Shown here piece after piece: positions 2,831 through 37,623 of a stretch of DNA of 37,623 nucleotides. Origin of the DNA: a virus; the IMG/VR virus record IMGVR_UViG_3300047160_000628, positions 1-37,623 of that record; one strand, 5' to 3'. The notes beneath the pieces are model-generated. The model saw only the letters and a list, made by a program, of their open reading frames with translations, had not been told where the DNA came from and searched no databases. Every line of letters begins with the position of its first letter. The first letter of the stretch is position 1. The translations under genes and the position numbers were made by a program.

Positions 2831-3600
2831 GGCTGGTCACCCAGTGGCTGGCCCACCGACCAGAAGAGCACCCTTGCGCCCATGTCGGCATGCGCACAGG
2901 CGATGCCCCATGCTGCGTGTTCGTAGCGCGGGTCTGACGGGAAGGGCGTGACCACGGGCGCCACGGGCAGGACCAACTCGAGCCTGCCTACCGTGTCCGG
3001 GGTCAGCAGCGCGCGCACCCTGTCCGCCGTATTCGCCCGGTTCATGGCGGGCACCCCGATGACGAAGCAGGCGCGGTCGTACCGCACCACCCCGATGGCC
3101 AGCGCAGCCGCGTACCCGCCTGATCCGACGCTGACGCAGTACACGTCGAAGTCATCAGGCACCTCGGCCACTGCCATGGCCGTGTGGTCCACGACCCCGG
3201 CTGTGGCGAAGCCCCACGGGATGTATTCGTACCCGCTGGTATCGGCCACGTGCCGGGCGTAGGCGCGCAGCGGCCCCAGATGACCGGGGCCGTGCAGGAA
3301 GACCGACGCGCCCAGATCAGCCGCCCGGCAGGTGTAGCCGTTCGGCTTGTAGGTATTCACGCAGGTGATCACGCCCACGCCCACCCTGCGCCCTGCGTAC
3401 GCAGCGATGGCGTGGGAATTAGATTGTGACGCCCCGGCATTCACCACGCCCCGTACGCCCTGATCGCGCAGGGCTGCCAGATACGGGATGACCCCGCGCA
3501 ACTTCCCATTCGGGAGGCCGGGGTCGTACTGGGACTCGTCCTTGACCCAGATGGGTCTGCCGCTGGGCGTACGGTACTTGCTGATTGGCGTCGCTGCCAT
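2821..3600 (-). CDS. PLP-dependent fold-type II enzyme, ACC deaminase / D-cysteine desulfhydrase family
   Basis: Motifs are VKDES...NGKLRG (compare the GNKxRK lysine motif), GASQSNSHAIAAYA (compare GGxQSNH) and the SVGSGG phosphate loop. The likely start is the ATG at 3600 (MAATPISKY), preceded by GAGGGGGA. The track ORF extends to 3702. Confidence 0.65.
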   Translation of the reverse strand: MAATPISKYRTPSGRPIWVKDESQYDPGLPNGKLRGVIPYLAALRDQGVRGVVNAGASQSNSHAIAAYAGRRVGVGVITCVNTYKPNGYTCRAADLGASVFLHGPGHLGPLRAYARHVADTSGYEYIPWGFATAGVVDHTAMAVAEVPDDFDVYCVSVGSGGYAAALAIGVVRYDRACFVIGVPAMNRANTADRVRALLTPDTVGRLELVLPVAPVVTPFPSDPRYEHAAWGIACAHADMGARVLFWSVGQPLGDQPCE

Positions 3601-3638
3601 CACGTCCCCCTCAGGACTTGGTGGTGAGGATAGGGCTA

Positions 3639-3707
3639 GGTCCCGCCTGCCGTCATCAGCAGACGGGACCAGATAGCCCGTCAGGATACTGCGGGGCGCC
3701 ACCCCGC
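3639..3707 (-). terminator. Two GC-rich hairpins downstream of the 3714 gene; candidate factor-independent terminator without a U-tract
   Basis: Hairpin 3639..3670 has 12-bp arms (ggtcccgcctgc / gcagacgggacc) with one wobble and an 8-nt loop. Hairpin 3691..3707 is gcgggg-cgcca-ccccgc. Confidence 0.4.
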
Positions 3708-4668: not shown

Positions 4669-4848
4669 TCAGCCCAGTACGATCAGTTCTGCGACCCCGA
4701 AGGCGAGGGCGCACTGCATGCCCCACAGGCGCACCAGCACGGTCCCGCTGGCGCCCTGTGCCCGGATGTCAGTGACCACGCCCCTGCGCCCGGCATAGGC
4801 GGTCTGGTGCGACCCTGACACCCGGACGATGCTGCCGACCCGGATCAT
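4669..4848 (-). CDS. Small hypothetical protein (59 aa), possibly a KOW/SH3-like beta protein
   Basis: Not in the track, being one residue below the 60-aa cutoff. ATG at 4848 forms an ATGA overlap with the upstream stop. The hand-translated, GC3-rich frame is MIRVGSIVRVSGSHQTAYAGRRGVVTDIRAQGASGTVLVRLWGMQCALAFGVAELIVLG, ending in TGA at 4669. Confidence 0.65.
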   Translation of the reverse strand: MIRVGSIVRVSGSHQTAYAGRRGVVTDIRAQGASGTVLVRLWGMQCALAFGVAELIVLG

Positions 4849-5624
4849 CGCCCGGACCCGATCTGGCGCGTCCCCACGCCCACCTGCGTCTGGCCCAGAT
4901 CAGCCCGGTTCGCAGCGTCGCGCCCCAGCGTCGCGCCCACTGCGTCCGCGCTGTACCCGCGCGCCTTGCCCAGTTCCGGGAAGCGCGCCACGCGGGCTGC
5001 CTCCACGATGGTGTCCCGCTGGACCAGCAGGGCGCTGGCATTCGGGACCGTGGCCACGACCTGCGTCTCGAGTTCGCGCAGCCGCTGCCCGATCCGGGTG
5101 GCGTAGCCCACCAGATACCCGGTCAGGAACTTGGACTTGCCGGTCCCGGTCAGGGCGCCGTATCGCTTCCAGTCCGCCTGCCCGAAGTGCATGCCCTGTG
5201 TCAGCAGGCTGGTCCACAGGACCTTGGCCGCTGCGATGTCGGACGGGAAGCCGATCATCACGCCCCAGCGCTCGCGCTCGGTATGCTCGCGGGTGCTGCC
5301 GGACCTGCGCCCGGTCCAGTAATAGTTCCGGGTGCCGTACATGAAGAACTGCACGTGGCAGGCGCGGGCCACGTGGCCCATCAGGGCGCCCCGCCCGACA
5401 GCGTTCTTGCCGTCCGGGGCGTACATCACGTCCTCGATGCTGGGATCATCGGCTGCGGTCCGGGCGCCATGTGCCTGTCGGGCGGCTGCCTCGTCGATGC
5501 TGTGGCGCAGCATGAGTTCATGCGCCTTGGCGAGGAAGGCATCGGCCTCGTGCTCGTTATCGGTCCCCTCGGCCTTCGCCAGCAGGGCACCGATCTTGCG
5601 CATCGTGTCGTCGGGGGTGGCCAT
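4845..5624 (-). CDS. Hypothetical protein with a DUF2786-like N-terminus
   Basis: Track ORF. The N-terminus MRKIGALLAKAEGTDNEHEADAFLAKAHELMLRHSI matches the DUF2786 pattern common in phages. GGGAGA lies 8 nt upstream of the ATG. Confidence 0.6.
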   Translation of the reverse strand: MATPDDTMRKIGALLAKAEGTDNEHEADAFLAKAHELMLRHSIDEAAARQAHGARTAADDPSIEDVMYAPDGKNAVGRGALMGHVARACHVQFFMYGTRNYYWTGRRSGSTREHTERERWGVMIGFPSDIAAAKVLWTSLLTQGMHFGQADWKRYGALTGTGKSKFLTGYLVGYATRIGQRLRELETQVVATVPNASALLVQRDTIVEAARVARFPELGKARGYSADAVGATLGRDAANRADLGQTQVGVGTRQIGSGR

Positions 5625-6141: not shown

Positions 6142-6972
6142 TCAGATGCCGAAGCCCCGCCCCGAGCAGATGGGGCCGATCCCCGCTGCGATGCTGGACT
6201 CGTCTGTCAGGGTCCGCCCGCACACGCAGCAGACCCCGTACAGCCGCCCGAAGGCCTGTGCGTCCTCGAGGGACATCTTGTCGGCTGCCGTCAGCCGGGT
6301 GATCGCGCCCGGTGCGTACTCGAACGAGCCCGTCCTGCTGGCCTCGTCCACGACCAGCCGCTTGGCGTACAGATTGCCCGATCCATTGACCGCCCGCTGA
6401 ACCTTCCAGATCGTGCCGTCAGCGGTCTTGTACATGCCGTCCGCATCGACGCGGGCTGCGGGACGCCACGCCTGCGCCTGCTGGACGGGTTGAGCCGGGC
6501 GAGCGACCCATGCCCGGTACTGATCGTCGGCAGCGATCTCGCGGGCGATCTGGGCGGCCTCAGCGCGCTGTGCGTCGCGCGCCTTGCCGGTCAGCAGGGC
6601 ATCCACCTGTCGGTCCGTCAGGTGCAGCCACTTGGTGCCCCAGCGGCTGTCAGCGCGGATGTCCAGCGGCAGACCCCATGTGCCCGTGTATGCGGCCACG
6701 TACGCGATGGCTTCGGCATGTCGCGCGCTGGCTACTGGGTTGGCGACGCCCGTTCCGGTGGATGTGCGCGGGGCCACGTCGCTGTCATCAGCGGGCGCTG
6801 CGGTCCAGCCGAGGCGATCATAGTACTCGCGGTACGTGACGCCATGCTTGTCGAGGAACTCTTGGTCGATGTCCGCATCGGCCATCGCGCGCCCGGCCTT
6901 GGTCGTCAGGTCCACGAGGCGACGCCCGCCCCCGCTGTGCCCGCTGGTGATGTACTTCTGTGTCATCGTCAT
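6142..6972 (-). CDS. Hypothetical protein with a DUF6011-like C-terminal Cys motif
   Basis: Track ORF 6142..7029. The start is the ATG at 6972 or, better spaced from GGGAG, the ATG at 6966 (MTQKYITSG). The C-terminus GRLYGVCCVCGRTLTDESSIAAGIGPICSGR matches the CxxCGRxLT...GIGPxC motif seen in phage proteins. Confidence 0.6.
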   Translation of the reverse strand: MTMTQKYITSGHSGGGRRLVDLTTKAGRAMADADIDQEFLDKHGVTYREYYDRLGWTAAPADDSDVAPRTSTGTGVANPVASARHAEAIAYVAAYTGTWGLPLDIRADSRWGTKWLHLTDRQVDALLTGKARDAQRAEAAQIAREIAADDQYRAWVARPAQPVQQAQAWRPAARVDADGMYKTADGTIWKVQRAVNGSGNLYAKRLVVDEASRTGSFEYAPGAITRLTAADKMSLEDAQAFGRLYGVCCVCGRTLTDESSIAAGIGPICSGRGFGI

Positions 6973-7048
6973 CTCCCTGTCGCTGCCGGGGTCGCTGTCC
7001 CGATGTGCGAACAATCGCCCCGGCAGCACAGGCTGTCAAGCAGTACTT
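6973..7048 (-). promoter_or_regulatory. Early-region regulatory cassette 3
   Basis: In minus sense: GAAGTACTGC-TTGACA (7039..7034), 18 nt, ATTGTT (7015..7010). The inverted repeat is ctgccgggg (6983..6991) / ccccggcag (7018..7026), with an inner GCG/CGC stem around the ATTGTT loop. This is followed by CAGCGAC-cccgg-CAGCGACAGGGAGATGAC. Confidence 0.55.
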
Positions 7049-17454: not shown

Positions 17455-17602
17455 GGATCAGCACCTGCATGGCCGCGATCATCGCAGCAGGTCCACAGGA
17501 CCGGCACAGCCACAGGACGCGCCCGGACAGCGGCAGCGTGACCGGATGGCCACGATGCCGCTGGCAGCGCACACAGGCGATCCTAGACGGGCTGTTGCTC
17601 AT
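17447..17602 (-). CDS. Small zinc-ribbon-like protein (51 aa) inside the head-tail joining block
   Basis: Not in the track. ATG at 17602 shares one base with the upstream TGA (TGATG). The hand translation is MSNSPSRIACVRCQRHRGHPVTLPLSGRVLWLCRSCGPAAMIAAMQVLIRG, ending in TGA at 17447. Its end overlaps the next start by 8 nt. Confidence 0.5.
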   Translation of the reverse strand: MSNSPSRIACVRCQRHRGHPVTLPLSGRVLWLCRSCGPAAMIAAMQVLIRG

Positions 17603-18312
17603 CAGACCGATGCCACCTGTAGGCCGATCTTGAAGTCAGCGATGAAGTCCCGCGCCTCGGGCGGCAGTTGGCTGTACTGCTGGACCGCCCCGCTGGGGGT
17701 GATCGCCACGTCAGCGAGGATCGATCCCGGACGCTCGGTGTAGAAGGCGGACAGTACCTTGACCGCCTGAAGGAACGTGTCGGGCTCCTCGCCCGGCGCC
17801 CAGCCCGCAGACCCCTTGATGTACAGGTCGTTGGGCATCGAGGTCCATGCGTACCCGCCCCCTCGATTGCCGGGGAAGAAGGGACTGTCGAGCAACTTGT
17901 CATACCACAGCGGGTCCGACAGCCACCATGGCGCGTCACTGTCGGCACGCCATGCCCGGAACTGGAGTGCCACGTAGGTCCCGGACATCAGATCGTCTGG
18001 GATGGCCCAGCAGGACGTATTGGGATCGGTGCTGCTGAAGCCCACGGACATGGTGGCGCCACCCCACGTCACGGTATCGAAGGTGCGGAAGCCGGGGATC
18101 GGCACCTGCGCCCGGATCATCGTCGTGGTCCGGTACACGAAGTCCGACACGTCCACCAACTTACGATGCGTCTCGAACTCGAGCTTGGACTGCGCAGCGC
18201 GGATGTTGGAGCCAATGGTCTCGTCGCTGTACCGGCTACTGCTGGGCGGGGTATTCAGTGACATGTAGTCACGCACCTGCGTGGGCGTCACCACCATGGC
18301 CATCTGGCTCAC
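17602..18312 (-). CDS. Head-tail connector (gp6-like adaptor) protein
   Basis: The N-terminus VTPTQVRDYMSLN...SDETIGSNIRAAQSKLEFETHRKL resembles the phage gp6-like connector pattern. It is the first structural gene after the glycosylation cassette, joined by a GTGA overlap. Confidence 0.5.
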   Translation of the reverse strand: MSQMAMVVTPTQVRDYMSLNTPPSSSRYSDETIGSNIRAAQSKLEFETHRKLVDVSDFVYRTTTMIRAQVPIPGFRTFDTVTWGGATMSVGFSSTDPNTSCWAIPDDLMSGTYVALQFRAWRADSDAPWWLSDPLWYDKLLDSPFFPGNRGGGYAWTSMPNDLYIKGSAGWAPGEEPDTFLQAVKVLSAFYTERPGSILADVAITPSGAVQQYSQLPPEARDFIADFKIGLQVASV

Positions 18313-19574
18313 GCTGCCGCCTCCGCCTCAGCCGGGTCCACGATGGCCTGCATCTGCTGGGCAGCCACCGACCACCGGAAGTTCCGCTGGACGTGCAGCA
18401 GCCCGGCCTTGCCCCGCACGCCCAGTTCGTGCTTGTTCTTGATGATCCAGTGCAGCGTGGTGGCGTACTGCTTCTGGTCTGGCGACGCCCACCAGTGGCT
18501 GTACACATTCTCAACGAGGTAGCCCACCGGCACGGTCCAGCCACCGGGACCGATCACCTCGGGCACACTGCTGAAGTCCAGCCCCACGACCGGGGTCCCG
18601 CACGCCATGGCCTCGGCAATGGTCAGCCCGAAGCCCTCGGCTGATGTGCTGACGTACAGGTCCGCTGCCGCGTACATGATGCGCAGAATGCTACGCGGGA
18701 CCCCACCGAACTCATCATGCAGCCCCGTGCTATTCATGCGGTCTGCGATGGGCTGCGGATACTTGCTGCGCTCGTCCAGCAGGTCCCCGCCCTGATCCAC
18801 GGACAGACAGTGCCAGATCAGGCGGGCGCGCGGGAAGACCTCGAGTACCGGGGCGACGGCACGCAGCAAGGCCGGGTATTGCTTGCGGGGCATGTGCCGG
18901 TCCGCGCGGAACATGATGAAGTCATCCTGTGGCCAGCCGAGGAACTTGCGCGCCTCGGCGCGACTGCGGATCACCACGTCCCGCGTGATCGTGCCATCTG
19001 GCCGGGCGCGCCCCACCAGCCGCACAGGCGAGATCTCGTTGATCGGCTTGAAGTCGGTGGTGTTCACCCCGTGATAGACCACGGGCGGGCGCCGTCCCGT
19101 CAACCGCTCGATCTCGCCCGCCCCGAAGTCGCACATGGCGACGGGCTGCACCCTGTCAAAGACTGCCTTCCACGATGGCGGCAGCCCGATCCCCTCGACC
19201 GGGACGTAGAAGTACGTAGGGTGACCCTCGGGCAGGATGGGCAGGATCGGGGACATCTTCAGCGACGCCACGTCCCCGACGATCAGGGTGGCGTCAGGCT
19301 TCCAGCCGTCCTCGAACAGCCCGCCCTCGAACATGGACTTCAGCCTGTCGCGGGTCTGGGGCAGCGACGCCTCGTCCAGCGCCAGCCACCCGGTCTTCTC
19401 GCCCAGCAGCGCGGTCCGGTCACGGAAGGGCGCGGGCAGACCGTCACGGGTGGGCGCCTCGTTCATCGACAGGAAGCGGATGTCCATGCCCAGCGCCAGC
19501 ATCTCGGCGCCCAGATCGATGGTCACGGTCCCGAAGCCGGTCCCACCCATGTCCCCGCAGAACAGCAGCCTCAT
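18309..19574 (-). CDS. GT-B fold glycosyltransferase (GT4 / Glycos_transf_1-like)
   Basis: The motif STSAEGFGLTIAEAMACGTPVVGLDFSSVPEVI is the E-x7-E region typical of GT4 enzymes. ATGA overlap with the upstream gene. Confidence 0.75.
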   Translation of the reverse strand: MRLLFCGDMGGTGFGTVTIDLGAEMLALGMDIRFLSMNEAPTRDGLPAPFRDRTALLGEKTGWLALDEASLPQTRDRLKSMFEGGLFEDGWKPDATLIVGDVASLKMSPILPILPEGHPTYFYVPVEGIGLPPSWKAVFDRVQPVAMCDFGAGEIERLTGRRPPVVYHGVNTTDFKPINEISPVRLVGRARPDGTITRDVVIRSRAEARKFLGWPQDDFIMFRADRHMPRKQYPALLRAVAPVLEVFPRARLIWHCLSVDQGGDLLDERSKYPQPIADRMNSTGLHDEFGGVPRSILRIMYAAADLYVSTSAEGFGLTIAEAMACGTPVVGLDFSSVPEVIGPGGWTVPVGYLVENVYSHWWASPDQKQYATTLHWIIKNKHELGVRGKAGLLHVQRNFRWSVAAQQMQAIVDPAEAEAAA

Positions 19575-20212
19575 GCCAGCGCCGCCATGCGCGCGTCCCA
19601 GCGCGCCCGATCCCGCTCGATCATCGGCTGGAGATCATCGGCTGCCTTCATGTACGACTGCGCCAGCAGATGCCAGACCGGCAGCCCATTGACCCGGATC
19701 ACCGACAGCCCCGCCACCCGCACATCATGCTCGAACTGATCGTCTCCGTACCACCACTGGTACCCCTCGTCGAAGCGGATGGGCAGATCGGACCGGATGG
19801 CGAAGGCAAAGCCGGTCATCCCGTCGTGACCCTGCGCGCCCCATGTCCCGCGCACCTCGGTGTAGGTGCCATCGGTCTGGTAGTCCATGTCGAAGGGCAC
19901 GGACGTATCCGGGCATGACACGCCCACGCGGGGATCAGTCAGCGGAGCGATCAGGGCGTGGATCGCGCCCGGTGGCAGCACCACGTCATCATTCAGCACG
20001 ACCGTGTACCGGGCGCGGTAGACATCACGGGCGATCTGGCAGCCCGTATTCCAGAGGCGGTAGATGGACCAGTCAGGGCCACGGTCGAAGGCATCCGGCA
20101 CCAGCACGACCTGCACCCCGTCCAGACGCAGGGTGGACACCAGCCCTAGCAGCGGGTCGGACTGGTAGCGCGTCGGGATCACGGCTGCGATGGTCACGGC
20201 TGGCCCACCCAT
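19571..20212 (-). CDS. GT-A fold glycosyltransferase (GT2-like)
   Basis: The N-terminus is IAAVIPTRY, and VVLNDDVV is DxD-like. An alternative GTG start at 20197 would give a GTGA overlap with the upstream stop. Confidence 0.6.
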   Translation of the reverse strand: MGGPAVTIAAVIPTRYQSDPLLGLVSTLRLDGVQVVLVPDAFDRGPDWSIYRLWNTGCQIARDVYRARYTVVLNDDVVLPPGAIHALIAPLTDPRVGVSCPDTSVPFDMDYQTDGTYTEVRGTWGAQGHDGMTGFAFAIRSDLPIRFDEGYQWWYGDDQFEHDVRVAGLSVIRVNGLPVWHLLAQSYMKAADDLQPMIERDRARWDARMAALA

Positions 20213-20814
20213 GCGACTGGCATTCCGAACTCACGGGCAGCCGCCTCGGCCTTGAAGGCGCCCAGTGCGTACCCATGGTGCGGATTGTCACCCGTCAGGG
20301 TACCGTCATCCAGCACCGTCCGCGTGTCCCCGGACAGGTACGAGTCCATGCCGACCAGAACGACCTCCGTGCAGCCGATGGCCTGCGCCAGCCGGACAGC
20401 CACCTCGGCTGACATGCTGTACCACGGGATGCCGAAGTCCTCGACCACGATCCGCACCGGATCATACGCCTCGAGGCAGTAGTTCGCCTCCTCGCGGGAC
20501 ACGACCGCGATCTCGTCCGGGGCGGGCGTGATCAGCGCGCATTCGTGACCGGGACCGGGCGGGTGCCACGTCGGGTCATCCCACCTGTGCCCCTGACAGC
20601 CGTCCTTCTGCATGCTGACGATCCGGTACGCAGCCACCAGCGGGCGCACGTGGATGACCGCCCGATTCAGCGTGATGACAGGACCCCAGCCCCAGCCCAT
20701 GAAGGTGTCCTTCGTGACCGCCAGCAGGCTGGGGCCACGGCCCACCACGTAGGCTGGCCTGTCCCGGAAGCGGGACTTGAGTTCGCGCAGGGGATCGGCC
20801 ACCACAGCGATCAC
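20194..20814 (-). CDS. MptE-like / DUF115 (Maf-type glycosyltransferase-like) protein
   Basis: The motifs AYVVGRGPSLL (compare GxGPSL) and VVLVGMDSY (compare the GxD motif) fit the DUF115/Maf family. The likely start is GTG at 20814 (GTGA overlap); the track ORF extends to 20877. Confidence 0.45.
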   Translation of the reverse strand: MIAVVADPLRELKSRFRDRPAYVVGRGPSLLAVTKDTFMGWGWGPVITLNRAVIHVRPLVAAYRIVSMQKDGCQGHRWDDPTWHPPGPGHECALITPAPDEIAVVSREEANYCLEAYDPVRIVVEDFGIPWYSMSAEVAVRLAQAIGCTEVVLVGMDSYLSGDTRTVLDDGTLTGDNPHHGYALGAFKAEAAAREFGMPVAWVGQP

Positions 20815-21539
20815 CTGACCGCTTCCTCGAAGCCAGACCACTTCCACTGCGTGATCTGGCCCGTATCGAACTCCCACTCGGGATTGGCGTGCAGCAGGTC
20901 CAACACATCCTGTGTGGTCACGTCCGGCCAGCGCTTGGACAGGCGCGCCATGATCCGCCTGTGCAGGGCCAGATCAGCCGCATGGTCGATGGTCAGCCGA
21001 TGGTGGGACTCGTCCGGGACCGTGGACAGCACCCTGACCGGGTACTCCTTCGGGCGCCTGTCCCAGAACGCCCCGGTGTGCTCGCGCTCCTCGGTCGTGG
21101 TGGCGTGACGATTCGCCATGTCCAGCGCCCAGCGGGTCACGGCCCATGCGTGCAGTCCGTACGGCTGGCCCGTGGTCCGGGCATAGACCGCCCCGTCGTG
21201 GACGGCATCGAGCACCTGCCGGATCGTATCCGGGTCCATCAGCGGCTGGTCTGCCCCGAGAAAGGCGATGGCCTGCACGTCGTGATAGAAAGCCGCCAGC
21301 CACACCCGGTGCACCACGTCATTGACCGGGCCACGGACCACACTGGCGCCCGCCGATGACGCCACGTGGCCCACGGCAGTATCAGCCGGGTCCCACGTCG
21401 TGGCGACGATCACAGGGGCAACTTTCTTCAGGCGGGACACCTGCCATGCCAGCAGCGGCTGCCCCACCACCTCCGCCAGCGTCTTGCCGGGCAGTCGGTG
21501 CGACCCCTGCCGCGCCTGAATGATGATGGCCTCCTTCAT
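20811..21539 (-). CDS. SpsF/NeuA-family cytidylyltransferase (CTP_transf_3-like nucleotide-sugar synthetase)
   Basis: The N-terminus MKEAIIIQARQGSHRLPGKTL is followed by TEEREHTGAFW and HRLTIDHAADLALHRRI, which resemble the EHVT and RLTVD..D motifs of SpsF-like enzymes. ATG at 21539 gives an ATGA overlap. Confidence 0.7.
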   Translation of the reverse strand: MKEAIIIQARQGSHRLPGKTLAEVVGQPLLAWQVSRLKKVAPVIVATTWDPADTAVGHVASSAGASVVRGPVNDVVHRVWLAAFYHDVQAIAFLGADQPLMDPDTIRQVLDAVHDGAVYARTTGQPYGLHAWAVTRWALDMANRHATTTEEREHTGAFWDRRPKEYPVRVLSTVPDESHHRLTIDHAADLALHRRIMARLSKRWPDVTTQDVLDLLHANPEWEFDTGQITQWKWSGFEEAVR

Positions 21540-22171
21540 CCGACCCCAGCCTCGATCCGGCTGTACAGGCGCGTGGACTCCTCGGCAATGGCCTCGTACT
21601 TGCTGTGGATCAGATACGCAGACCGGGGCGCCTTCGGCAGCCATGGGGTCCCGCGCGTCAGCGCCTCGGGCACCCCGTCCAGCATCACCTGCTCGTGGAC
21701 CGGCTTGTACCAGACGCCAGCCTTGCGCCTGAATAGGCGGCAGTGCCAGTGCTCCTCGTATTCGTCACCCTGATGTCCGTCGAAGTAGTTCTGCGTGAAG
21801 TACAGGTACCCACGCGGGGCCGGGTAGCCCGTCCCCTGCCAGCGCACGTCCTGCTGCACCGGGTCCTGCGTCACCAGCCGGATGTGCTCCATCATCGCCA
21901 CGGACGGCACTTCGTCCGGGTCCAGATGCAGCACCCAGTCCCCGGTGGCCACCGGGATGGCGGCATTCCGGGCTGTGGCGAAGTCATCCACCCACGTGAA
22001 GGGGACCAGCACCGTGTCCCGCCACTGCTCCATGATGCTGACCGCCTCGGGCAGCGTCCGGTCATCGACCACAATCACGGTCTGCTGCACGAACGGGCGG
22101 ATGTACTCCACCAGCGCTGTCAGCCGGTCGATGGGTGGGTCCTTGACGAGGAACGCTGCCGAGACGGTCAT
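21536..22171 (-). CDS. GT-A fold glycosyltransferase (GT2-like)
   Basis: Motifs are VSAAFLVKDPP, TVIVVDDRT, WVDDFATARNAA and GDWVLHLDPDE. It starts 18 nt after the capsid gene stop, preceded by CAGCGACAGGTGA. Confidence 0.7.
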   Translation of the reverse strand: MTVSAAFLVKDPPIDRLTALVEYIRPFVQQTVIVVDDRTLPEAVSIMEQWRDTVLVPFTWVDDFATARNAAIPVATGDWVLHLDPDEVPSVAMMEHIRLVTQDPVQQDVRWQGTGYPAPRGYLYFTQNYFDGHQGDEYEEHWHCRLFRRKAGVWYKPVHEQVMLDGVPEALTRGTPWLPKAPRSAYLIHSKYEAIAEESTRLYSRIEAGVG

Positions 22172-22189: not shown

Positions 22190-23689
22190 CTAGGTGGTGA
22201 GGGTGGTCATGTACTGGAAGGCACCGACAGCCACGGCGGTCTTCGGGTTGAACCCGATTTCCTCCTCGGCACGGAAGCCAATCAGGTTGTAGTCCCAGCG
22301 GGTCCCAGCCTGATCGGACGTGTCGATGCGGAATTCCATGCCCCGGTACAACTTCGCCTGCTTCCAGTCGCCAGCGATGGCGAGCGGAACGATGGACGCG
22401 TTGGTCCCGAGGTTGGCGTCGTACCGGACCGGGACGCCCCAGAAGGACAGCCCGCCGTACGGGGTGATGTCGCCCGGTCCGCCTGTCGGAGACAGGAAGA
22501 AGCCCGCCGTGTCCGTGCCCTGCGCAGCCACCGTCCAGAAGGTGGTGGCGTCGATGACCACGGCTGTGGCGCGCTGAGACCGTCCGGCCAGCGCCCCGAA
22601 CAACTTCGCCAGCCCAGCGGCAGCCGATCCCGCGAGGGTATTCGGTCCAGCCGTGGGGGTGAAGGTGGACTTGTACAGCGGGTCTGCCGCCTGAAGGGCG
22701 GTCAGGATGCCCGTGGGCGTGTCGGTCCCGGCAACGCCAGTACCGCCCGCGCCCACCGCCATGTAGTAGTTCTCGCCCAGAACGGCTGCCCGAGTGAGTT
22801 CGTCCATGACATCCGTCTCGGCAGCGCCCGCGCTGAAGCGCGCGTACTGCTTGGAGATGTCCATGACACGGGCGATGGTGCACAGGTACGCAGCGTACGT
22901 GCCGTACGCCTCGTCCAGATTCTCCTTCAGCGTGCCCCAGTTGGACACGACCATGCGGGGCGGAGCCCCGGTGCGGTAGGGCTGATCCACGCCCCGGACC
23001 GCCACGCCATTGATGACCGTGACCAGCGTCTGGTAGACGGCCTCCTGCGTGTGCGGCTTGACCACCGTGTCCACGAGGTTATTCGGCAGGACGTAGCCGC
23101 CTGCCGACCCCGGTGTACCGAGGGTGGCCTTGCCTCCGCCGTCCACGAACTGGTAGCCCGTGGCGAGGTCGGCCTTGCCTGCGTAGGCACTGAACTGCGC
23201 CATCGCAGCCTTGCCGCGCAGGATCGCCTCGAGGTCCGGCGCCGTGGTCATCCCGTCGATGCCGTGGACATCGAGCAGGGCGGTCAGCCACTCGCCAGCC
23301 TTGTACTTCGTGAACGCCGCGTCCATCGACGGAAAGGGGCTGATGATCGCGTCCGCCTTGCGACGGGACCCGCCACCAGACCTGTCCAGCGGTCCACCCT
23401 GCCCGATCTCGCCTGCGCGGGACGGGCTGTACTGGTGGACTGCCGCCTTGAAGCGCTCGAACTCCTCGGCCTGCTTGTCCAGCCGCTTCTGGAGATCGGC
23501 CTTGCGCTTCTTCTTGCCCTGACGCTGGTCTGCGTCAGTCAGCCGGGCTGCTGTGTCACGCAGCCCATCAGCGGCAGCGGCCTTGCGGCCACCGTCGCTG
23601 CGCGATCCATCCTCGAACCGCGCGATCAGGTCCCGCATGTCCTGCGTCGCCTGACCGATCTCGCGGGCGAGGTCCTCGTTCTGGCCCAT
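22190..23689 (-). CDS. Major capsid protein, HK97 fold, with an N-terminal coiled scaffold-like (delta) domain
   Basis: A 499-aa ORF after the protease gene, with GAGGAG upstream. The charged helical N-terminus runs for about 110 aa. It is followed by typical capsid-family sequence (GGYVLPNNLVDTVVKP..., ...WDYNLIGFRAEEEIGFN). Confidence 0.75.
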   Translation of the reverse strand: MGQNEDLAREIGQATQDMRDLIARFEDGSRSDGGRKAAAADGLRDTAARLTDADQRQGKKKRKADLQKRLDKQAEEFERFKAAVHQYSPSRAGEIGQGGPLDRSGGGSRRKADAIISPFPSMDAAFTKYKAGEWLTALLDVHGIDGMTTAPDLEAILRGKAAMAQFSAYAGKADLATGYQFVDGGGKATLGTPGSAGGYVLPNNLVDTVVKPHTQEAVYQTLVTVINGVAVRGVDQPYRTGAPPRMVVSNWGTLKENLDEAYGTYAAYLCTIARVMDISKQYARFSAGAAETDVMDELTRAAVLGENYYMAVGAGGTGVAGTDTPTGILTALQAADPLYKSTFTPTAGPNTLAGSAAAGLAKLFGALAGRSQRATAVVIDATTFWTVAAQGTDTAGFFLSPTGGPGDITPYGGLSFWGVPVRYDANLGTNASIVPLAIAGDWKQAKLYRGMEFRIDTSDQAGTRWDYNLIGFRAEEEIGFNPKTAVAVGAFQYMTTLTT

Positions 23690-23703: not shown

Positions 23704-24960
23704 CTAGCGCGTAGTGGGGAGCACCTCGCGTGCCCGCGCGATGACGAGGCGCGCTTCACGCAGTGCTGACAGCAGGACATCGCGCCCGGTCCCGTAACCG
23801 GACTGGTCGGAAGCAGTCAGCCGCCTACCAGTCAAGCCGCTATCCGGGTCGATGTCATCGAGTCCGACCAGTGCCGCCTTGACGGCACCCAGCCCTACCT
23901 CGCGAAGTGGGATGTCAGCGGCCAGTATCGCCTTCAGCGACGGCATGACCGCGAGGGTATTCTGGGGTGACGTGCTGATGGTCTGCCTGATCCACGGCCA
24001 CGTCAGGATCTCCCCCGTGGCCTTGTTCACGCGCCAGCCCGGCGCAGACTCGGACGACCCGTACAGGTGCGCGCCCCTGCGCTCCAGATCGGCCACCAGA
24101 CGCAGCCTGCGCTCGCCCGCATTGGCCCACAGGTCCACCCACAGACCATCCATCTCAGGCGACTCGTCCGCTACGGCCTTCCCGAGAATGGCGTCGCCCA
24201 TGTAGCCCGTGGGGTCCATCCGGTGGTGGAAGTCCACCAGCCGGTCCCGCGTGGCCAGCAGCGCCTTGTGCCCTGCGTACAGGTCGGTGCGCTCGCTGAA
24301 CCACTCGCCATCGATGTCCACCCCGCGCGGGGCACCGGCCTGTGGGATCGTCCCGCCGTAGGGGATCGCCAGCATCCTGCGCGGGATCTCGCCCTTCAGC
24401 CACCGATCCAACTGCCCGGTGGTCATCGGCTCGGCCTTGAGTTCTGCGAACTCGCGGGCCTTCATCGAGTAGGACGGGGCCATGGCATCGTCACCCGCCA
24501 GATCGTCCGCAGTCCCGATCTCCTGCTGCTCGAGTTGCAGCCACTGCGCCAGACTGGCGATGCTGGACTTGATGGCGGCAGCCTGCGTGGACTCGTCCGC
24601 CTCACAGGACAGCAGGTCGTACAACTCCGCCATGATCCGGGCGCCACAGGCTGCATTGCTGGCAGCCTCGCTGTACGCCTTCTGCTTGGTCCCGGCATCC
24701 TCGGCGGGCTGCCCGATCCCGAACTTGCGGGCGGCAGCCTCGACCTTCGGGCGCGCCTTTGCCTCGAAGGGTGACGTGGTCAGACGCGCCAGCGCATTGC
24801 GCACGTGGGCTGCGTCATGGATCGGAAAGTGCCGCTTCGACCGGGGCACGGTCTTGCCCTGATCGTCCTTCGTCCCGCCCGGCTCGATGTAGGCGAAGTC
24901 CGAGTCTGGCAGATCGTTGATGTCCGCGCTGGACATCGCTGCCTTGCCGCTAGCCATCAC
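23704..24960 (-). CDS. Prohead maturation protease / scaffold fusion
   Basis: It lies between the portal and capsid genes. The N-terminal motif DLPDSDFAYIEPGG...RHFPIHDAAHVRNALARL is common in phage scaffold/protease proteins. The C-terminal half has HK97-protease-like His and Ser regions (VDFHH..., LYGSSES). Confidence 0.55.
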   Translation of the reverse strand: MMASGKAAMSSADINDLPDSDFAYIEPGGTKDDQGKTVPRSKRHFPIHDAAHVRNALARLTTSPFEAKARPKVEAAARKFGIGQPAEDAGTKQKAYSEAASNAACGARIMAELYDLLSCEADESTQAAAIKSSIASLAQWLQLEQQEIGTADDLAGDDAMAPSYSMKAREFAELKAEPMTTGQLDRWLKGEIPRRMLAIPYGGTIPQAGAPRGVDIDGEWFSERTDLYAGHKALLATRDRLVDFHHRMDPTGYMGDAILGKAVADESPEMDGLWVDLWANAGERRLRLVADLERRGAHLYGSSESAPGWRVNKATGEILTWPWIRQTISTSPQNTLAVMPSLKAILAADIPLREVGLGAVKAALVGLDDIDPDSGLTGRRLTASDQSGYGTGRDVLLSALREARLVIARAREVLPTTR

Positions 24961-27641
24961 TCGCCCTCGCCTTCCGTACTGCCCTCGTCCATGGTCTCGA
25001 TGACCGGCACCCAGTCCAGCGTGCCATTCGGGTGGTCCTCGATATCAGCCGCTTCCTCGACGCTGTAGGTCTGGCCATCGCGCTCAGCGCACACATCGTC
25101 ATCGTCCCCGTCGATGGCCTCGACCTGCGTCACGCCCATGTCCCCGTACGTACTGACAGCAGCGGCGTTGTACGCAAACATCAACTCTGTGGTGGCGATC
25201 CGCTCGGCGCGGTACTCGTCCCAGCCGAACCACGACTGGATCATGTCGCCCAGCGTGGCCGGTGACGCGCCCTCCTCGAGCCCGTCATCGATGATTTCCT
25301 TCAGCCCGTCGCGGGTGGTCTCGTTGATCTTCGTGACCCGGCCAGCACCCTTGGCCAGCACGTACGTGACGGCAGCCGGTTGGGGCGGTCCGCCCACTGG
25401 CACAAATGCCGCCTTGCCTGTCGGCATCACGGTCCTGATGTGATCATCCACCGTGACCGCGACATTCGTGAGGGTGGGTGACAGGGCGGCTGTCATCGCC
25501 TGATCGTGCGCCTTGGCATTCCACCAGATCGTGGTGTCACCCGGCGTCCGCCTGATGGCGTCGTACTTCGTCAGAACCCGCGACACCACGTCCCGCTTCA
25601 TTTGCTCCAGCGCGCCTGCCACGGACGCGCGCAGCACTGGCGTCTGCGCCTTCTGCACCCGCTCGCGCAGCCCCTGCATCCGGGACCGGACCGTGGCTGC
25701 CTTGCCACGCGATCCGGCATCCTGTGGGGCGGGCAGGGTGTCATCAATCGCGATCAGGTCCCGCGTCCACTGATCGTCACCCTTCCCGATATAGGCCGGG
25801 ACGTGGGTCAGCCCTGCGTGCTCGGCGCCCAGCAGCCGGTGCCACCCATCGATGGGTTCCGTGGGCTTGGCATCCGCCCCGCTGCCGCCGATCCGCTTCG
25901 TCTTGACCAGTACCACGGGATCGATGGGCGCGCCCACGCCCAGCGCAGCCGCGACAGCCTGCACAGTCTTCGGATTGCGGGCGATGGGGCGCCGGGCGTA
26001 GTCGATCTTGTCCAGCGGGTACGCGGGATCGTACTTCCAGTCCCCCTTGGAGATCTGGGACAGGCTGTCGGCAGACCACTGCTTGCGCAGGGCGCCCAGA
26101 ACCGCCTGTGTCACGTCGCCCTTGGCCTTGGTGGCCTGCACGCCAGCCGGTGGCTGAACTGCCGCTGTTGCGGCTGTTGCGGGCGCAGGCGCGGGCGTGG
26201 CCGGGGCTGCCGGTCGTGGACCTGCGCCCGGCGCAGGCGAGCCCCCACCTGACGGGATCGGTGGGGATGCGCCGGGCATCAGGTCCTCAATGGGAATCAG
26301 GGTATTCGGCATCAGGATGCGCTTGCCGACCGTCTCGTCATCCAGCGGGTCCTTGCCGATCAGGTCCCGGCGCTCGTCATTCGTGAGCGCGATCCACTGC
26401 GCCTTGGCCAGTTTGTCGAAGCGTGCGCTGTCATCATTCAGCGCCGGGATGTCCAGCACCAACTGCGGCGCCCAGCCCAGCAGCGCCTCGAAGCGGTCGA
26501 GGATGCGTCCCTGCACGGACTCCTGAATCTCGGCCAGTCGCGGGATGATCGCATTCTCCCACATCGCCTGCCGGTCGTACTTGCGCACGTCCCCGGAGTT
26601 CAGCCCGGTGGGCGTATAGCCGCCCAACTGCGACAGGGGCACGCCCCAGACCGCCAGCAGGTCGGCCTCGTTCTGCTTGAGGAAGTCCACCAGCGCCATC
26701 TCGACCGTCGTAGCGGTCGTGCGGGTGAACTCGATGGGTCCCCGGACCACCTGCACCCGCTTGCCGGACTCGGGCTGCTCCGTGATGTTGCGCCAGTCCC
26801 GGACCATCTGCTGGTACACGCCATCGTCCTCGATGGCGCCCGTCTTCGGGGACAGGATGCCGGACAGGCGCCCACCCCCGGACAGCAGGCTGGCGAAGTA
26901 CTTGTCAATGGTCCCCGACAACTGGACCTTCATGATTGCGGACTCGATCAGCCCGGCTGGCATGTAGCCCACGTCTGGCGGCTGGAACTGGAACTGCACC
27001 ACCTCGTTGGGGTCCAGCTCGCGCCCTTCGGCCCTGCCACCGGGGCCGGGACGCGGGTCCAGTATCCACTTCGTCAGCACACCCTGATCATTCGTGTCCG
27101 GGACGATCCGGTCAGGACGGCAGTAGATGACGCTACGCGGAATGCCCAGCGGGTCCATACCATCCAGAATCCAGAAGCCGTATCCGGCCAGCCCCATGTG
27201 CCGGGACGTGATCTCCCAGAGTTGGCGCCGGGTCCGCAGCGGGCTGGGCACGTCGAGGTACTTGAATGGCTGGTCCACCAGCGTGTACGCCTCGATGGCG
27301 CGCGGATCGCCCGTGTACTCGTCATCGATGGTCTCGCCATCGGGGTCTTCCAGATGCCACGATGCGGACTGGTCCCCCATCAGCGGCGTTCCGGCCACCG
27401 CCCCGCTGATCGCGCGCTCGGCCATGCGCACATACGGCACGTCCACGCCCAGCGCCAGACTGCGGGCAGCCTTCTTCTGCGTGTCGTTCGGCAGGATCAG
27501 TGGCAGCAGCCACTCGGTCATCAGGACGCCAGCGCCCGGACCGATGGGGCCAGCCTTCACTGCCGCTGCCCCGGCAGTTTCGACACCGGGATGCCGGGCC
27601 ACCGGGGCAGCAGCAGGACGGGTCGGGACCATGACACTCAC
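24957..27641 (-). CDS. Portal protein fused to a ParB-like nuclease/DNA-binding domain and a MuF/SPP1 gp7-like head morphogenesis domain
   Basis: An 894-aa ORF. The N-terminal ~470 aa are portal-like by position and size. A Pro/Ala linker follows, then the ParB-N-like segment PLDKIDYARRP...PIDPVVLV...EPIDGWHRLLGAEHAGLTHVPAYIG. The C-terminal MuF-like segment is RAERIATTELMFAYNAA...DDVCAERDGQTYSVEEA...HPNGTLDWVP. Confidence 0.65.
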   Translation of the reverse strand: MSVMVPTRPAAAPVARHPGVETAGAAAVKAGPIGPGAGVLMTEWLLPLILPNDTQKKAARSLALGVDVPYVRMAERAISGAVAGTPLMGDQSASWHLEDPDGETIDDEYTGDPRAIEAYTLVDQPFKYLDVPSPLRTRRQLWEITSRHMGLAGYGFWILDGMDPLGIPRSVIYCRPDRIVPDTNDQGVLTKWILDPRPGPGGRAEGRELDPNEVVQFQFQPPDVGYMPAGLIESAIMKVQLSGTIDKYFASLLSGGGRLSGILSPKTGAIEDDGVYQQMVRDWRNITEQPESGKRVQVVRGPIEFTRTTATTVEMALVDFLKQNEADLLAVWGVPLSQLGGYTPTGLNSGDVRKYDRQAMWENAIIPRLAEIQESVQGRILDRFEALLGWAPQLVLDIPALNDDSARFDKLAKAQWIALTNDERRDLIGKDPLDDETVGKRILMPNTLIPIEDLMPGASPPIPSGGGSPAPGAGPRPAAPATPAPAPATAATAAVQPPAGVQATKAKGDVTQAVLGALRKQWSADSLSQISKGDWKYDPAYPLDKIDYARRPIARNPKTVQAVAAALGVGAPIDPVVLVKTKRIGGSGADAKPTEPIDGWHRLLGAEHAGLTHVPAYIGKGDDQWTRDLIAIDDTLPAPQDAGSRGKAATVRSRMQGLRERVQKAQTPVLRASVAGALEQMKRDVVSRVLTKYDAIRRTPGDTTIWWNAKAHDQAMTAALSPTLTNVAVTVDDHIRTVMPTGKAAFVPVGGPPQPAAVTYVLAKGAGRVTKINETTRDGLKEIIDDGLEEGASPATLGDMIQSWFGWDEYRAERIATTELMFAYNAAAVSTYGDMGVTQVEAIDGDDDDVCAERDGQTYSVEEAADIEDHPNGTLDWVPVIETMDEGSTEGEGE

Positions 27642-37432: not shown

Positions 37433-37623
37433 TTATTCCATAGGCGTCTCCTCGCGGGCGAGGCGGGCGTATTCCTCGACGACCTCCGGGGCATGCAGGT
37501 CCATGCCCATGCAGTCGTCGTGCCATTGGGCTCGAAGTGCCCACGCCAGCCGGTTCACGTCCAGCGCGGCGGCCTCGGCCTCGATGTCCGCGCGGATGGC
37601 GGCGAAGGTGCGGGTCGGTTCGC
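37433..37623 (-). CDS. 3' part of the same wrap-around hypothetical gene, ending in TAA at 37433..37435
   Basis: The frame continues from the repeat: ...LRAQWHDDCMGMDLHAPEVVEEYARLAREETPME then TAA. Bases 37527..37623 duplicate 1..97. Confidence 0.6.
   Translation of the reverse strand, partial: EPTRTFAAIRADIEAEAAALDVNRLAWALRAQWHDDCMGMDLHAPEVVEEYARLAREETPME
37527..37623. repeat. Right copy of the 97-bp direct terminal repeat
   Basis: Identical to bases 1..97. Confidence 0.9.

Follow-up and report, generated by a model that had tools for sequence, protein, structure and literature searches.

A predicted CMP-sugar synthetase coupled to a minimal DUF115/MptE-like protein in a putative virion glycosylation cassette of an uncultivated phage

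Glycosylation of virions by phage-encoded enzymes was shown only recently, in mycobacteriophages, where it shields the particles from antibodies. Sialic-acid-like sugars, for their part, control surface recognition and immune evasion in bacteria. The locus described here raises the question of whether a phage could place such a sugar on its own particle. Two overlapping genes in its head region resemble a cytidylyltransferase of the type that makes CMP-activated sugars and a protein of the DUF115 type. An earlier note on this DNA had proposed that the pair decorates the virion with a nonulosonic or Kdo-type sugar. We asked what the two products are, which sugar they might handle, where that sugar would come from and where it would be placed.

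The window, that is, the whole stretch of DNA analysed (37,623 nucleotides; IMG/VR record IMGVR_UViG_3300047160_000628), is the genome of an uncultivated phage of 37.5 kb, and a 97-bp terminal repeat indicates that the genome is complete. Its GC content is 0.67, the GC content at the third position of the two genes is 0.81-0.82, and no tRNAs were found in the genome. Both genes were found on the minus strand (Table 1), and since both proteins have homologues, the open reading frames are not due to chance. The cytidylyltransferase (CTase) gene starts at ATG 21539, which overlaps the stop codon of the upstream GT2 gene (ATGA), and stops at 20811. The DUF115-like gene starts at GTG 20814, directly over the CTase stop codon (GTGA), with a Shine-Dalgarno-like AGGAAG element about 8 nt on the 5' side, and ends at 20194. 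The GTGA coupling described in the earlier note was thus confirmed, and the four motifs that it quoted (IIQARxGSxRLPGK, EREH/RLTID, GRGPSL and LVGMDS) are all present in the two products.

Table 1. Features of the head region around the putative glycosylation cassette
Feature	Coordinates	Strand	Evidence or remarks
Portal gene	24957-27641		Cassette lies downstream of this gene
HK97-type major capsid protein	22190..23689	(-)	PF05065, E 1.9e-14; directly upstream of cassette
GT2-family glycosyltransferase, 211 aa, cassette gene 1	21536..22171	(-)	PF00535, 33.7 bits, above the cut-off of 23.3
SpsF-type cytidylyltransferase (CTase), 242 aa	20811..21539	(-)	Predicted CMP-nonulosonic-acid synthetase
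Minimal DUF115/MptE-like protein, 206 aa	20194..20814	(-)	Predicted nucleotide-sugar-dependent transferase
GT2-like protein, ~208 aa from GTG 20197	19571..20197	(-)	PF00535 weak, 19.2 bits against a cut-off of 23.3
GT4 (GT-B fold) glycosyltransferase, 421 aa, final cassette gene	18309..19574	(-)	PF00534, E 1.8e-14; PF13692
Virion-module protein, 236 aa, downstream cassette boundary	17602..18312	(-)	Conserved in synteny

The two genes belong to a cassette of five (GT2, CTase, DUF115-like, GT2-like and GT4) situated between the major capsid gene and the gene for the 236-aa virion-module protein. Besides the CTase/DUF115-like junction, three of four cassette junctions are 4-nt ATGA or GTGA overlaps; among these, a GTGA overlap joins the GT4 gene to the 236-aa gene. 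The longest open reading frame of the GT2-like gene starts at ATG 20212. If the alternative start read from the sequence, GTG 20197, is used, the DUF115-like/GT2-like junction is a GTGA overlap too. The earlier note was also right to place the pair inside a structural operon: glycosyltransferase genes lie here within the virion structural operon, downstream of the portal and capsid genes and upstream of the conserved 236-aa gene. The whole cassette, from the capsid gene to the downstream gene, is syntenic in two related loci, L007 and L009, and in a truncated one, L006. The capsid gene is 45-52% identical to its counterparts in front of the cassette in both L007 and L009; the GT2 gene, the product of which weakly resembles SunS-type peptide glycosyltransferases, is 60-62% identical to the syntenic genes of these two loci. 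Compared with their counterparts in L006, L007 and L009, the GT2-like protein is 40-42% identical, the GT4 protein, which matches PHROG 2170 (glycosyltransferase, E 6e-19), 40-50% and the 236-aa gene 53-61%. Neither Pfam nor PHROGs gave a match for the 236-aa protein. It is encoded where a head-tail adaptor would typically be found, and that role is a prediction from its position. The major capsid protein is a candidate glycan acceptor. Its C-terminus is Thr-rich in this phage, ending in TTLTT. A Ser/Thr-rich C-terminus was considered as the glycosylation site and dropped because it is not shared by L007 and L009.

The cassette might act on the host envelope (receptor masking or superinfection exclusion) or on the phage DNA and not on the virion, and both serotype conversion and DNA glucosylation are well known for phage glycosyltransferases (PMC12619734). 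The position of the genes argues against such targets. They are embedded in the late head operon, where they overlap adjacent genes in the stretch from the capsid gene to the following virion gene, and the same placement was seen in every locus examined in detail. Moreover, the ORFs that were scanned included no integrase, and none of the scanned proteins matched polyprenol-linked or membrane glycosyltransferase families. We therefore consider an envelope or DNA target quite improbable, and take the virion as the probable target of the cassette.

The identity of the CTase was examined at the levels of sequence and predicted structure. The product starts with MKEAIIIQARQGSHRLPGKTL and contains EEREHTG and HHRLTIDHAADL. 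It passed the Pfam model PF02348 (CTP_transf_3) with 64.7 bits against a gathering cut-off of 22.6, the match covering residues 39-203 of a 277-aa version of the ORF, that is, most of the 242-aa enzyme. In a phmmer search, residues 1-220 aligned to residues 9-235 of PDB entry 6oew (E 1.2e-14), with EREH and RLTID aligned. The AF2 model (pLDDT 96) was superimposed on the same entry by Foldseek with a TM score of 0.89, an rmsd of 2.0 and an E value of 7e-23, at 26% identity in the structural alignment. KdsB, NeuA and the CMP-Kdn and CMP-Pse synthetases ranked next, and IspD and GlmU lower. Only SpsF-type proteins matched it from end to end, with the EREH and RLTID segments included, and a protein identical to the CTase has been named SpsF by JGI. 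Across 43 homologues, conservation is complete or at least 90% at R152, E153 and H154 (the REH of EREH) and at D185. By sequence and model, the predicted enzyme groups with CMP-ulosonic-acid synthetases, and specifically with the SpsF type, much as the earlier note had supposed.

The Kdo alternative in that note fared less well. The KdsB equivalog and subfamily models of NCBIfam gave 33-46 bits against cut-offs of 155-281 and matched residues 1-121 only. Since these models cover only the N-terminal half, and at low bits, a Kdo-type sugar is disfavoured. The canonical PseF model (TIGR03584) failed as well, with 23.7 bits against a cut-off of 205.7 over residues 6-67 only. To our knowledge, the substrate of an SpsF-type enzyme has never been defined biochemically. 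In B. subtilis, SpsF is genetically needed after legionaminic-acid synthesis, which fits CMP activation (PMC7439481). The cellular homologues of the CTase are informative on this point. For each of the four that were sampled (31-40% identity), the surrounding cluster encodes a NeuB-type synthase together with a PseB-like dehydratase; a DegT aminotransferase is also present in three of these clusters, and two contain the canonical pseB-pseC-CTase-pseG-pseH-pseI array. One cellular NeuB/CTase cluster (L061) also contains a small PF01973 protein. A sugar of the pseudaminic/legionaminic (Pse/Leg) type is favoured over Kdo.

The phage itself does not appear to make this sugar. No homologues of PseB, PseC, PseG, PseH or PseI/NeuB were found in the complete phage genome, and no other nonulosonic-acid genes were found in the available flanks of 57 related phage loci. 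Since the genome is complete and has no nonulosonic-acid synthase, the substrate must be host-derived. No host could be assigned: the terminase and PrimPol are less than 33% identical to those of any isolated phage, the hosts of which are mixed, and the PrimPol matches to Streptomyces phages are too weak for this purpose. A scan of a genome collection for the host gave a single distant match, a fusion protein of 451 aa encoded in a MAG of the Syntrophales. The gene for this protein lies amid co-directional genes, a layout suggesting an unannotated prophage.

The second protein required more sensitive comparisons. Its product contains VVGRGPSLL and VLVGMDSYLSGD. Against PF01973 it scored below threshold (26.4-26.6 bits against a cut-off of 34.6, over residues 7-30 only), and the PF01973 score was likewise below threshold in every match table shown for its relatives. 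PHROGs and NCBIfam gave no match, and phmmer against the PDB sequences gave nothing meaningful. Nevertheless, 16 of 51 family members matched PF01973, and no other family, at E below 0.01, some of them aligning to positions 12-165 of the 171-position profile. In hhalign comparisons, the protein was matched with a probability of 99.2% (E 1e-19) to a PF01973-bearing member of the family (P0181) and of 93.4% (E 2.6e-7) to the cellular PF01973 protein of the NeuB-containing cluster L061, the negative control giving 0.3%. Foldseek searches with the AF2 model (pLDDT 91.5) gave phage proteins annotated as MptE-like as the best matches in BFVD (E 1e-5, probability 1.0). In the PDB, the best match was MptE of M. 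jannaschii (8sd5; probability 0.94-0.98, E 0.01); the PDB matches are weak, with E values of about 0.01 and TM scores of 0.42-0.50, and include GT29 sialyltransferases, about as good as MptE, together with thiamine pyrophosphokinase and SteA. A profile search of the PDB reached the sialyltransferase CstII at a non-significant E value of 0.9-1.6, with the GPSL and S...G...D motifs aligned in register; in CstII these motifs bind CMP. G25, S29, L30, N50, K70 and D71 are invariant in one family alignment (A2), in which G27, P28 and D157 are at least 90% conserved, as is S135 in the broad alignment (A1). A QKDGC motif is specific to the family, and a close clade has conserved C73, H90, C92 and C113 in a loop insert.

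These comparisons of sequence and model place the putative transferase in the MptE/sialyltransferase-like fold, as a minimal domain. Of the likeness to MptE and Maf claimed in the earlier note, the MptE/DUF115 fold is upheld by the hhalign results and the AF2 model. Identity with Maf was rejected. Maf is a protein of ~600 aa with several domains, in which substrate-recognition domains flank DUF115, and it is encoded in a flagellar glycosylation locus. The phage protein is a bare, single domain of 206 aa without flagellin-recognition regions, encoded in a phage head operon. Neither the fold comparison nor the placement of the CTase in its clade, two of the three possible refutations set out in the earlier note, overturned the idea.

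It is worth considering that MptE, which ranked first in the PDB, is no glycosyltransferase but a pyrophosphokinase, and that thiamine pyrophosphokinase and SteA were also among the matches. The DUF115-like protein might then be a small-molecule or sugar kinase or a pyrophosphokinase, the phosphorylated product of which would be converted to a CDP-linked donor by the cytidylyltransferase. A role in phosphoryl transfer would fit the invariant K70-D71 and the nearly invariant D157, and the pairing of a kinase with a nucleotidyltransferase is a common logic of salvage pathways. Several facts speak against a kinase, however. The CTase belongs to the PF02348 branch, the known members of which use unphosphorylated 2-keto-3-deoxy acids, and its homologues lie in NeuB clusters. 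A nucleotidyltransferase partner is missing for most family members, the fusions found in the family are with glycosyltransferases and methyltransferases, and MptE and GT29 sialyltransferases fit the fold about equally well. A kinase role thus seems to us highly unlikely, and a nucleotide-sugar-dependent transferase is the prediction that we retain.

The conservation of the pair was then analyzed in related phages. Neither megablast of the cassette nor tblastn of the DUF115-like, CTase and capsid proteins found a match among 50,697 deposited phage genomes. A word-indexed protein search gave only two relatives of the DUF115-like protein; an exhaustive search of representatives revealed a family of 246 representative clusters of ~200-aa proteins, without annotation and here on phage-like contigs, which is almost never found in species-representative cellular genomes. 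Loci were searched with a closer alignment (A3), since the broad alignment A1 lacks a conserved stretch. Members sit beside capsid genes with glycosyltransferases and methyltransferases. An SpsF-like CTase was present in 4 distinct contigs among the 58 sequences scanned, namely this phage and 57 loci, a few of which are duplicates. The JGI metagenomes from which related contigs derive are 3300047409, 3300047160 and 3300046517. In this phage, L002, L007 and L009, the CTase gene directly precedes the DUF115-like gene with a stop/start overlap, and across these genomes the CTases are 37-47% and the DUF115-like proteins 40-43% identical; the CTase of L009 (254 aa) is ~47% identical to that of this phage. 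The CTase-linked members all belong to a high-GC clade, but a quick NJ tree does not unite them cleanly as a monophyletic group. In other loci the DUF115-like gene adjoins TagF-like, rhamnosyltransferase-like and methyltransferase genes, and members fused to GT2, GT4, RgpF and methyltransferase domains were also found.

Since the CTase and other nonulosonic-acid genes are rare or absent in the phage loci, the family as a whole is not tied to CMP-sugars. The nonulosonic pairing proposed in the earlier note therefore stands in part: the CTase homologues do lie in Pse/Leg-type clusters, but most relatives of the DUF115-like protein have no CTase. It is conceivable that the virion is glycosylated and yet that the two proteins do not form a donor/transferase pair, the DUF115-like protein transferring some other group from a host-supplied nucleotide donor and the product of the CTase being used by another cassette enzyme, such as the GT2-like protein. 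The neighbours of the CTase-less members (TagF-like, rhamnosyltransferase-like, glycosyltransferase and methyltransferase genes) would agree with this, as would the lack of nonulosonic-acid genes in all of the phage loci; in phages without a CTase, the DUF115-like protein would have to use such a donor. Furthermore, a TagD-like cytidylyltransferase is present in L002 as well, and L007 has a second SpsF-like copy away from its DUF115 gene. On the other hand, the overlapping order of CTase and then DUF115-like gene is kept in four genomes despite divergence to ~40% identity, the residues of the sialyltransferase-type nucleotide-binding pattern are invariant or nearly so across the family, and one cellular cluster combines a small PF01973 protein with a CTase homologue and NeuB. 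We regard separate functions for the two proteins as unlikely.

Our preferred explanation, for which we would put the chances at about even, is that the two genes serve to activate and then transfer a sialic-acid-like sugar within a virion glycosylation cassette. The five genes would be expressed late. The SpsF-type enzyme would make a CMP-sugar from CTP and a free, host-made nonulosonic acid, which is most likely a pseudaminic- or legionaminic-type sugar. The 206-aa protein, a stripped-down version of the nucleotide-binding fold of the MptE/Maf/sialyltransferase type, would bind this CMP-sugar and transfer the acidic sugar. The acceptor would probably be an oligosaccharide made by the GT2, GT2-like and GT4 enzymes on the capsid or another virion protein. 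The earlier note had envisaged that the acidic sugar is O-linked to protein directly, which is not indicated here: since the cassette has three more glycosyltransferases, capping of an oligosaccharide is at least as likely. The analysis suggests a glycan on the particle that would bear a host-derived, acidic nine-carbon sugar. More tentatively, minimal DUF115-like transferases may be a recurrent core of glycosylation cassettes in phage head modules, and in the high-GC clade they may have become coupled to a CMP-nonulosonic-acid synthetase, capping capsid glycans with a Pse/Leg-type sugar scavenged from the host; we judge this broader proposal possible, though somewhat doubtful.

We know of no report of a nonulosonic acid on a phage virion, and a literature search for one found none. 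A paper on a Tannerella nonulosonic-acid transferase did not name DUF115, MAF_flag10 or PF01973 and treated Maf as background only, so that it offers no precedent. If the explanation is true, it would provide the first case of a phage virion decorated with a sialic-acid-like sugar, and charged nine-carbon sugars would join the known chemistry of virion glycosylation, with a bearing on phage stability, mimicry of the host surface, adsorption and the design of therapeutic phages. The analysis also defines a large, previously unnamed and phage-associated family of predicted minimal DUF115-like transferases. Its 246 clusters provide a handle for spotting glycosylated phages in metagenomes, and the family may yield compact nonulosonic-acid transferases, a class with few known enzymes.

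The components of the cassette can be compared with known systems. With the SpsF-type enzymes (the COG1861 branch of PF02348, including B. subtilis SpsF and the Leptospira protein 6oew), the CTase shares the ARxGSxRLPGK loop, a GDxP-like motif, EREH and RLTID, and the C-terminal EREH/RLTID region is missing in KdsB and NeuA. Unlike the genes of the cellular SpsF-type enzymes, its gene lies in the head operon of a phage and has no NeuB, PseB, PseC or PseG partners. With the Maf/DUF115/MptE-like proteins (PF01973), the DUF115-like protein has in common the GxGPSL loop, the S...G...D motif, an Asn after the second strand and an acidic residue ending the third strand; in contrast to Maf, it is a bare domain of catalytic type, with no flanking domains and no flagellar context. 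Its resemblance to the GT42 (CstII) and GT29 sialyltransferases is more distant, the sequence similarity being non-significant (E about 1) and the TM score only ~0.45. The closest parallel for the cassette as a whole is found in the mycobacteriophages. According to the account in PMC12619734 of Freeman et al. (2023), their capsid and tail-tube subunits are glycosylated by phage-encoded enzymes, and the same subunits are described as glycosylation targets in PMC11256854. In Che8, Corndog and Myrna, phage glycosyltransferase genes likewise lie in or beside the structural genes. In comparison with those cassettes, the one described here is extended by a DUF115-like protein and by a predicted synthetase that would supply a nucleotide sugar of the sialic-acid-like class.

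An exact direct repeat at its two ends shows the window to be the complete genome of a phage, circularly assembled and ~37.5 kb long, with a GC content of ~67%. The window has no tRNA, and the ORFs scanned included no integrase. Every gene in the cassette part is encoded on the minus strand. In the 894-aa protein, the portal part and the MuF-like domain are separated by a long Pro/Ala-rich linker. Eighteen nucleotides separate the capsid stop from the GT2 start, and 4-nt ATGA or GTGA overlaps are found at four of the five junctions that follow. The DUF115-like/GT2-like junction is also a 4-nt overlap if the GT2-like gene starts at GTG 20197, not at the upstream ATG 20212. The coordinates, the motifs and the GTGA coupling that the earlier note had given for the cytidylyltransferase (CTase) and DUF115-like genes were all correct. 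The same genome encodes a fold-type II PLP enzyme (PALP, E 1.5e-14; weak Thr/Ser dehydratase similarity) and a protein with an NAD-binding Rossmann motif; the end of the former overlaps the start of the latter. This is a metabolic pair unusual in a small phage.

Table. Positions of features in the window and in related loci (L002-L026, phage; L061, cellular)
Feature	Sequence	Positions	Strand	Length or source
Direct terminal repeat	window	1-97 and 37527-37623		97 bp
PrimPol	window			Pfam
PD-(D/E)XK nuclease	window			Pfam
RusA	window			Pfam
GH25 lysin	window			Pfam
Large terminase	window			Pfam
Portal (PF04860) fused to C-terminal MuF-like domain	window	24957-27641	minus	894 aa
Major capsid protein, HK97-type	window	22190-23689	minus	Pfam
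GT2	window	21536-22171	minus	211 aa
Cytidylyltransferase	window	20811-21539	minus	242 aa
DUF115-like protein	window	20194-20814	minus	206 aa
GT2-like protein	window	19571-20197	minus	about 208 aa
GT4	window	18309-19574	minus	421 aa
Conserved protein downstream of cassette	window	17602-18312	minus	236 aa
DUF2786/DUF7168 and DUF6011 proteins	window	4845-5624 and 6142-7029	minus
PLP enzyme	window	2821-3702	minus
Rossmann protein	window	2066-2830	minus	254 aa
PLP enzyme and Rossmann protein, pair	window	2066-3702
TagD-like cytidylyltransferase	L002	6863-7291
DUF115-like gene with neighbours	L003	5662-9232
DUF115-like gene with neighbours	L005	5268-7578
Second SpsF-like copy	L007	1163-2137
DUF115-like gene with neighbours	L010	4482-6754
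Fusion protein	L023	6317-8827		836 aa
Fusion protein	L026	5284-7410		708 aa
PF01973 protein	L061	16090-16902		270 aa

The CTase matched PF02348 in Pfam with 64.7 bits (cut-off 22.6). Among the NCBIfam models, those of KdsB covered residues 1-121 only and scored 33-46 bits (cut-offs 155-281), and the canonical PseF model gave 23.7 bits (cut-off 205.7). The only solved structure matching the full length was the SpsF-type cytidylyltransferase of Leptospira (6oew, E 1.2e-14), in an alignment that takes in the EREH and RLTID segments. The AlphaFold model (pLDDT 96.1) matched 6oew with a TM of 0.89; the next structural matches were the CMP-Kdo, CMP-Neu5Ac, CMP-Kdn and CMP-Pse synthetases (TM 0.57-0.67), which outranked IspD and GlmU. 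In 43 homologues, Q8, R10, R15, P17, G18 and K19 of the nucleotide loop were invariant, as were D97, H154 and D185; R152 and E153 were at least 90% conserved and, together with H154, make up the REH of the EREH motif. Judged by this conservation, the CTase looks catalytically intact.

The genomic context was sampled for four cellular CTase homologues, all of which lie in a cluster with a NeuB-type (nonulosonic-acid) synthase. The homologues of Halobacillus sp. (38% identity) and Gracilibacillus oryzae (34%) are located in pseB-pseC-CTase-pseG/pseH-pseI(NeuB) and pseB-pseC-CTase-pseG-pseH-pseI(NeuB) arrays, respectively. Those on a 53-kb metagenome contig (40%) and a 3.7-Mb genome-scale contig (31%) belong to polysaccharide clusters with NeuB and a PseB-like dehydratase, joined by a DegT aminotransferase on the former. 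When spsF is deleted in B. subtilis, legionaminic acid is still present in the mother cell but absent from the spore, in line with a CMP-activating role of SpsF (PMC7439481). From the family and structure matches, the NeuB-cluster homologues and B. subtilis spsF, the CTase is therefore placed among the enzymes that activate sialic-acid-like sugars. The earlier note had proposed a nonulosonic or Kdo-type sugar; the SpsF type and the NeuB clusters support the former, whereas Kdo is less likely in view of the partial, sub-cut-off KdsB matches, and a substrate of the pseudaminic or legionaminic acid type is more likely. In tblastn searches, PseB, PseC, PseG, PseH and PseI queries from two clusters found nothing in the complete phage genome; against 57 phage loci, these queries found nothing beyond the CTases already noted. 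Since the phage carries no other nonulosonic-acid gene, any acidic sugar would have to be supplied by the host.

The sole Pfam match of the DUF115-like protein was PF01973; it scored 26.4-26.6 bits, below the cut-off of 34.6, and was confined to the GRGPSL region. PHROGs, NCBIfam and a search of PDB sequences yielded nothing of use. With hhalign, its family profile scored 99.2% against a PF01973-bearing member and 93.4% (E 2.6e-7, 161 columns) against the 270-aa cellular PF01973 protein, versus 0.3% for an unrelated Rossmann protein as control. The PDB fold matches of its AlphaFold model (pLDDT 91.5, pTM 0.90) were all weak (E about 0.01, TM 0.42-0.50). The best was the M. jannaschii MptE pyrophosphokinase (probability 0.94-0.98), and GT29 sialyltransferases, SteA and thiamine pyrophosphokinase were also among the better ones. 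In BFVD, the best matches were phage proteins annotated as MptE-like (E 1e-5, probability 1.0); the matches also included viral sialyltransferases. Of the suggested Maf/DUF115-like character, a relation to the MptE/DUF115 fold thus stands, at remote-homology strength. The Maf identity was rejected: the protein is a bare domain without flagellar context, whereas Maf proteins are more than twice as long.

In the CstII sialyltransferase, motifs of the same pattern, which we take to be its CMP-binding motifs, lie in register with the GPSL and S...G...D motifs of the family in a non-significant alignment (E about 1). The fold that the DUF115-like protein resembles takes in pyrophosphokinases too, and the protein might be a kinase that feeds the CTase. 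We regard the kinase as very improbable and prefer a putative transferase.

The IMG/VR scan gave 52 loci (L002 and L008 are the same contig). With HMMs of both families, the CTase gene was found to precede the DUF115-like gene directly in the window and in the phage contigs L002, L007 and L009. The order in L002 is capsid, GT4, 77-aa ORF, TagD-like cytidylyltransferase (of the glycerol-3-phosphate type), 239-aa protein, SpsF-like CTase and DUF115-like protein; the last two genes overlap, and their products are 37% and 43% identical to those of the window. In L007 and L009, the scaffold, the capsid, all five cassette genes and the downstream 236-aa protein are syntenic with the window, at protein identities of 38-62%. 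L006 starts within the DUF115-like gene, and the genes that come after it are again the same. Since gene order and overlap are kept at such divergence, these facts argue for functional coupling of the CTase and the DUF115-like gene. L007 also has a second SpsF-like copy upstream of the scaffold gene, where it adjoins a GT4 fragment.

The two families co-occur independently in the polysaccharide cluster of the cellular contig L061, where a CTase homologue, NeuB, DegT, a PseB-like gene and the 270-aa PF01973 protein (33.5 bits, nearly full profile aligned) stand together. This protein is a candidate non-flagellar nonulosonic-acid transferase. It could be argued that the CTase and the DUF115-like protein are not a donor/transferase pair: a CTase is absent near most family members, which sit in head modules beside other enzymes. 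Beside the kept gene order and the cellular cluster, we consider this unlikely.

The neighbours in such head modules are a TagF-like glycerophosphotransferase and two methyltransferases (L003 and L004), a glycosyltransferase and a methyltransferase straight after the capsid gene (L005), or a rhamnosyltransferase-like gene between the portal and protease-capsid genes (L010 and L011); the methyltransferases are of the Methyltransf_24/23 type. Because these enzymes lie in the head module, they hint at teichoic-acid-like or methylated glycans on the capsids of these phages. The DUF115-like family is clearly part of the phage glycan-building machinery, and not every member need use a CMP-sugar as donor.

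A word-indexed search of 5.8 billion proteins returned the DUF115-like protein itself and one relative (34% identity); when 1.84 billion cluster representatives were searched exhaustively, 246 relatives emerged at E ≤0.001, 93 of them at ≤1e-10. The typical member is a standalone protein of ~200 aa, and none of the 41 members returned from the annotated protein database has a functional name. The family-defining residues are G25-x-G27-P28-S29-L30, N50, a Q-K70-D71-G motif, S135, G147, D157 and Y182. PF01973 was matched by 16 of 51 members, several relatives aligning to almost all of the profile, and no other family was matched. In the close clade, C73, C92 and C113 are invariant and H90 nearly so. 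These residues, within the stretch 69-113, are for the most part located in a loop insert without regular secondary structure, modelled with high confidence, and may form a structural metal site. In species-representative genomes the family is almost absent, the one match being a fused protein among co-directional genes in a Syntrophales MAG. Some members carry a fused methyltransferase, GT2, GT4 or RgpF domain. In two low-GC phages, the L023 fusion combines two methyltransferase regions, a DUF115-like profile match and a GT2 domain, and the L026 fusion has a PF01973-like domain in its centre.

No related isolated phage was found in deposited phage genomes, and the terminase and PrimPol matches (<33% identity, over many host genera) indicated no host. 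DUF2786/DUF7168 and DUF6011 domains are common in actinobacterial phages, and their presence in the window weakly hints at an actinobacterial host.

From the gene structure, the family and fold membership, the synteny and the cellular-homologue context, all of which the analysis shows, we infer the substrate, the donor, the acceptor and the virion as target. Late in infection, the cassette would be co-translated with the head proteins. The GT2, GT2-like and GT4 proteins would assemble a short glycan on one of the virion proteins; the most plausible carrier is the capsid protein, whose gene directly precedes the cassette. The SpsF-type enzyme would convert CTP and a free host nonulosonic acid to the CMP-sugar, from which the DUF115-like protein would move the nonulosonic acid onto the glycan, probably as its cap. 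The target could also be the host envelope or DNA, which seems highly improbable for a cassette that follows the capsid gene. For virion decoration by this whole mechanism, the prospects of being right or wrong are about equal.

The prediction of a sialic-acid-like virion sugar is specific and testable, and the DUF115-like family is broad. In full-text searches of the literature, no phage-encoded synthetase of the SpsF/PseF type turned up in a pair with a DUF115 protein, and no description of nonulosonic acids on phage particles was met with; the phage cytidylyltransferases treated in a cyanophage paper are of the TagD type. Beside the cassette, the analysis brings out a family of minimal DUF115-like proteins that is largely carried by phages and lacks annotation. 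In mycobacteriophages, glycosylation of capsid and tail-tube subunits by phage-encoded enzymes is established (Freeman et al. 2023, as cited in PMC12619734 and PMC12582341). Compared with the virion-glycosylation cassettes already known, that of the window adds a predicted module to activate and transfer a sialic-acid-like sugar.
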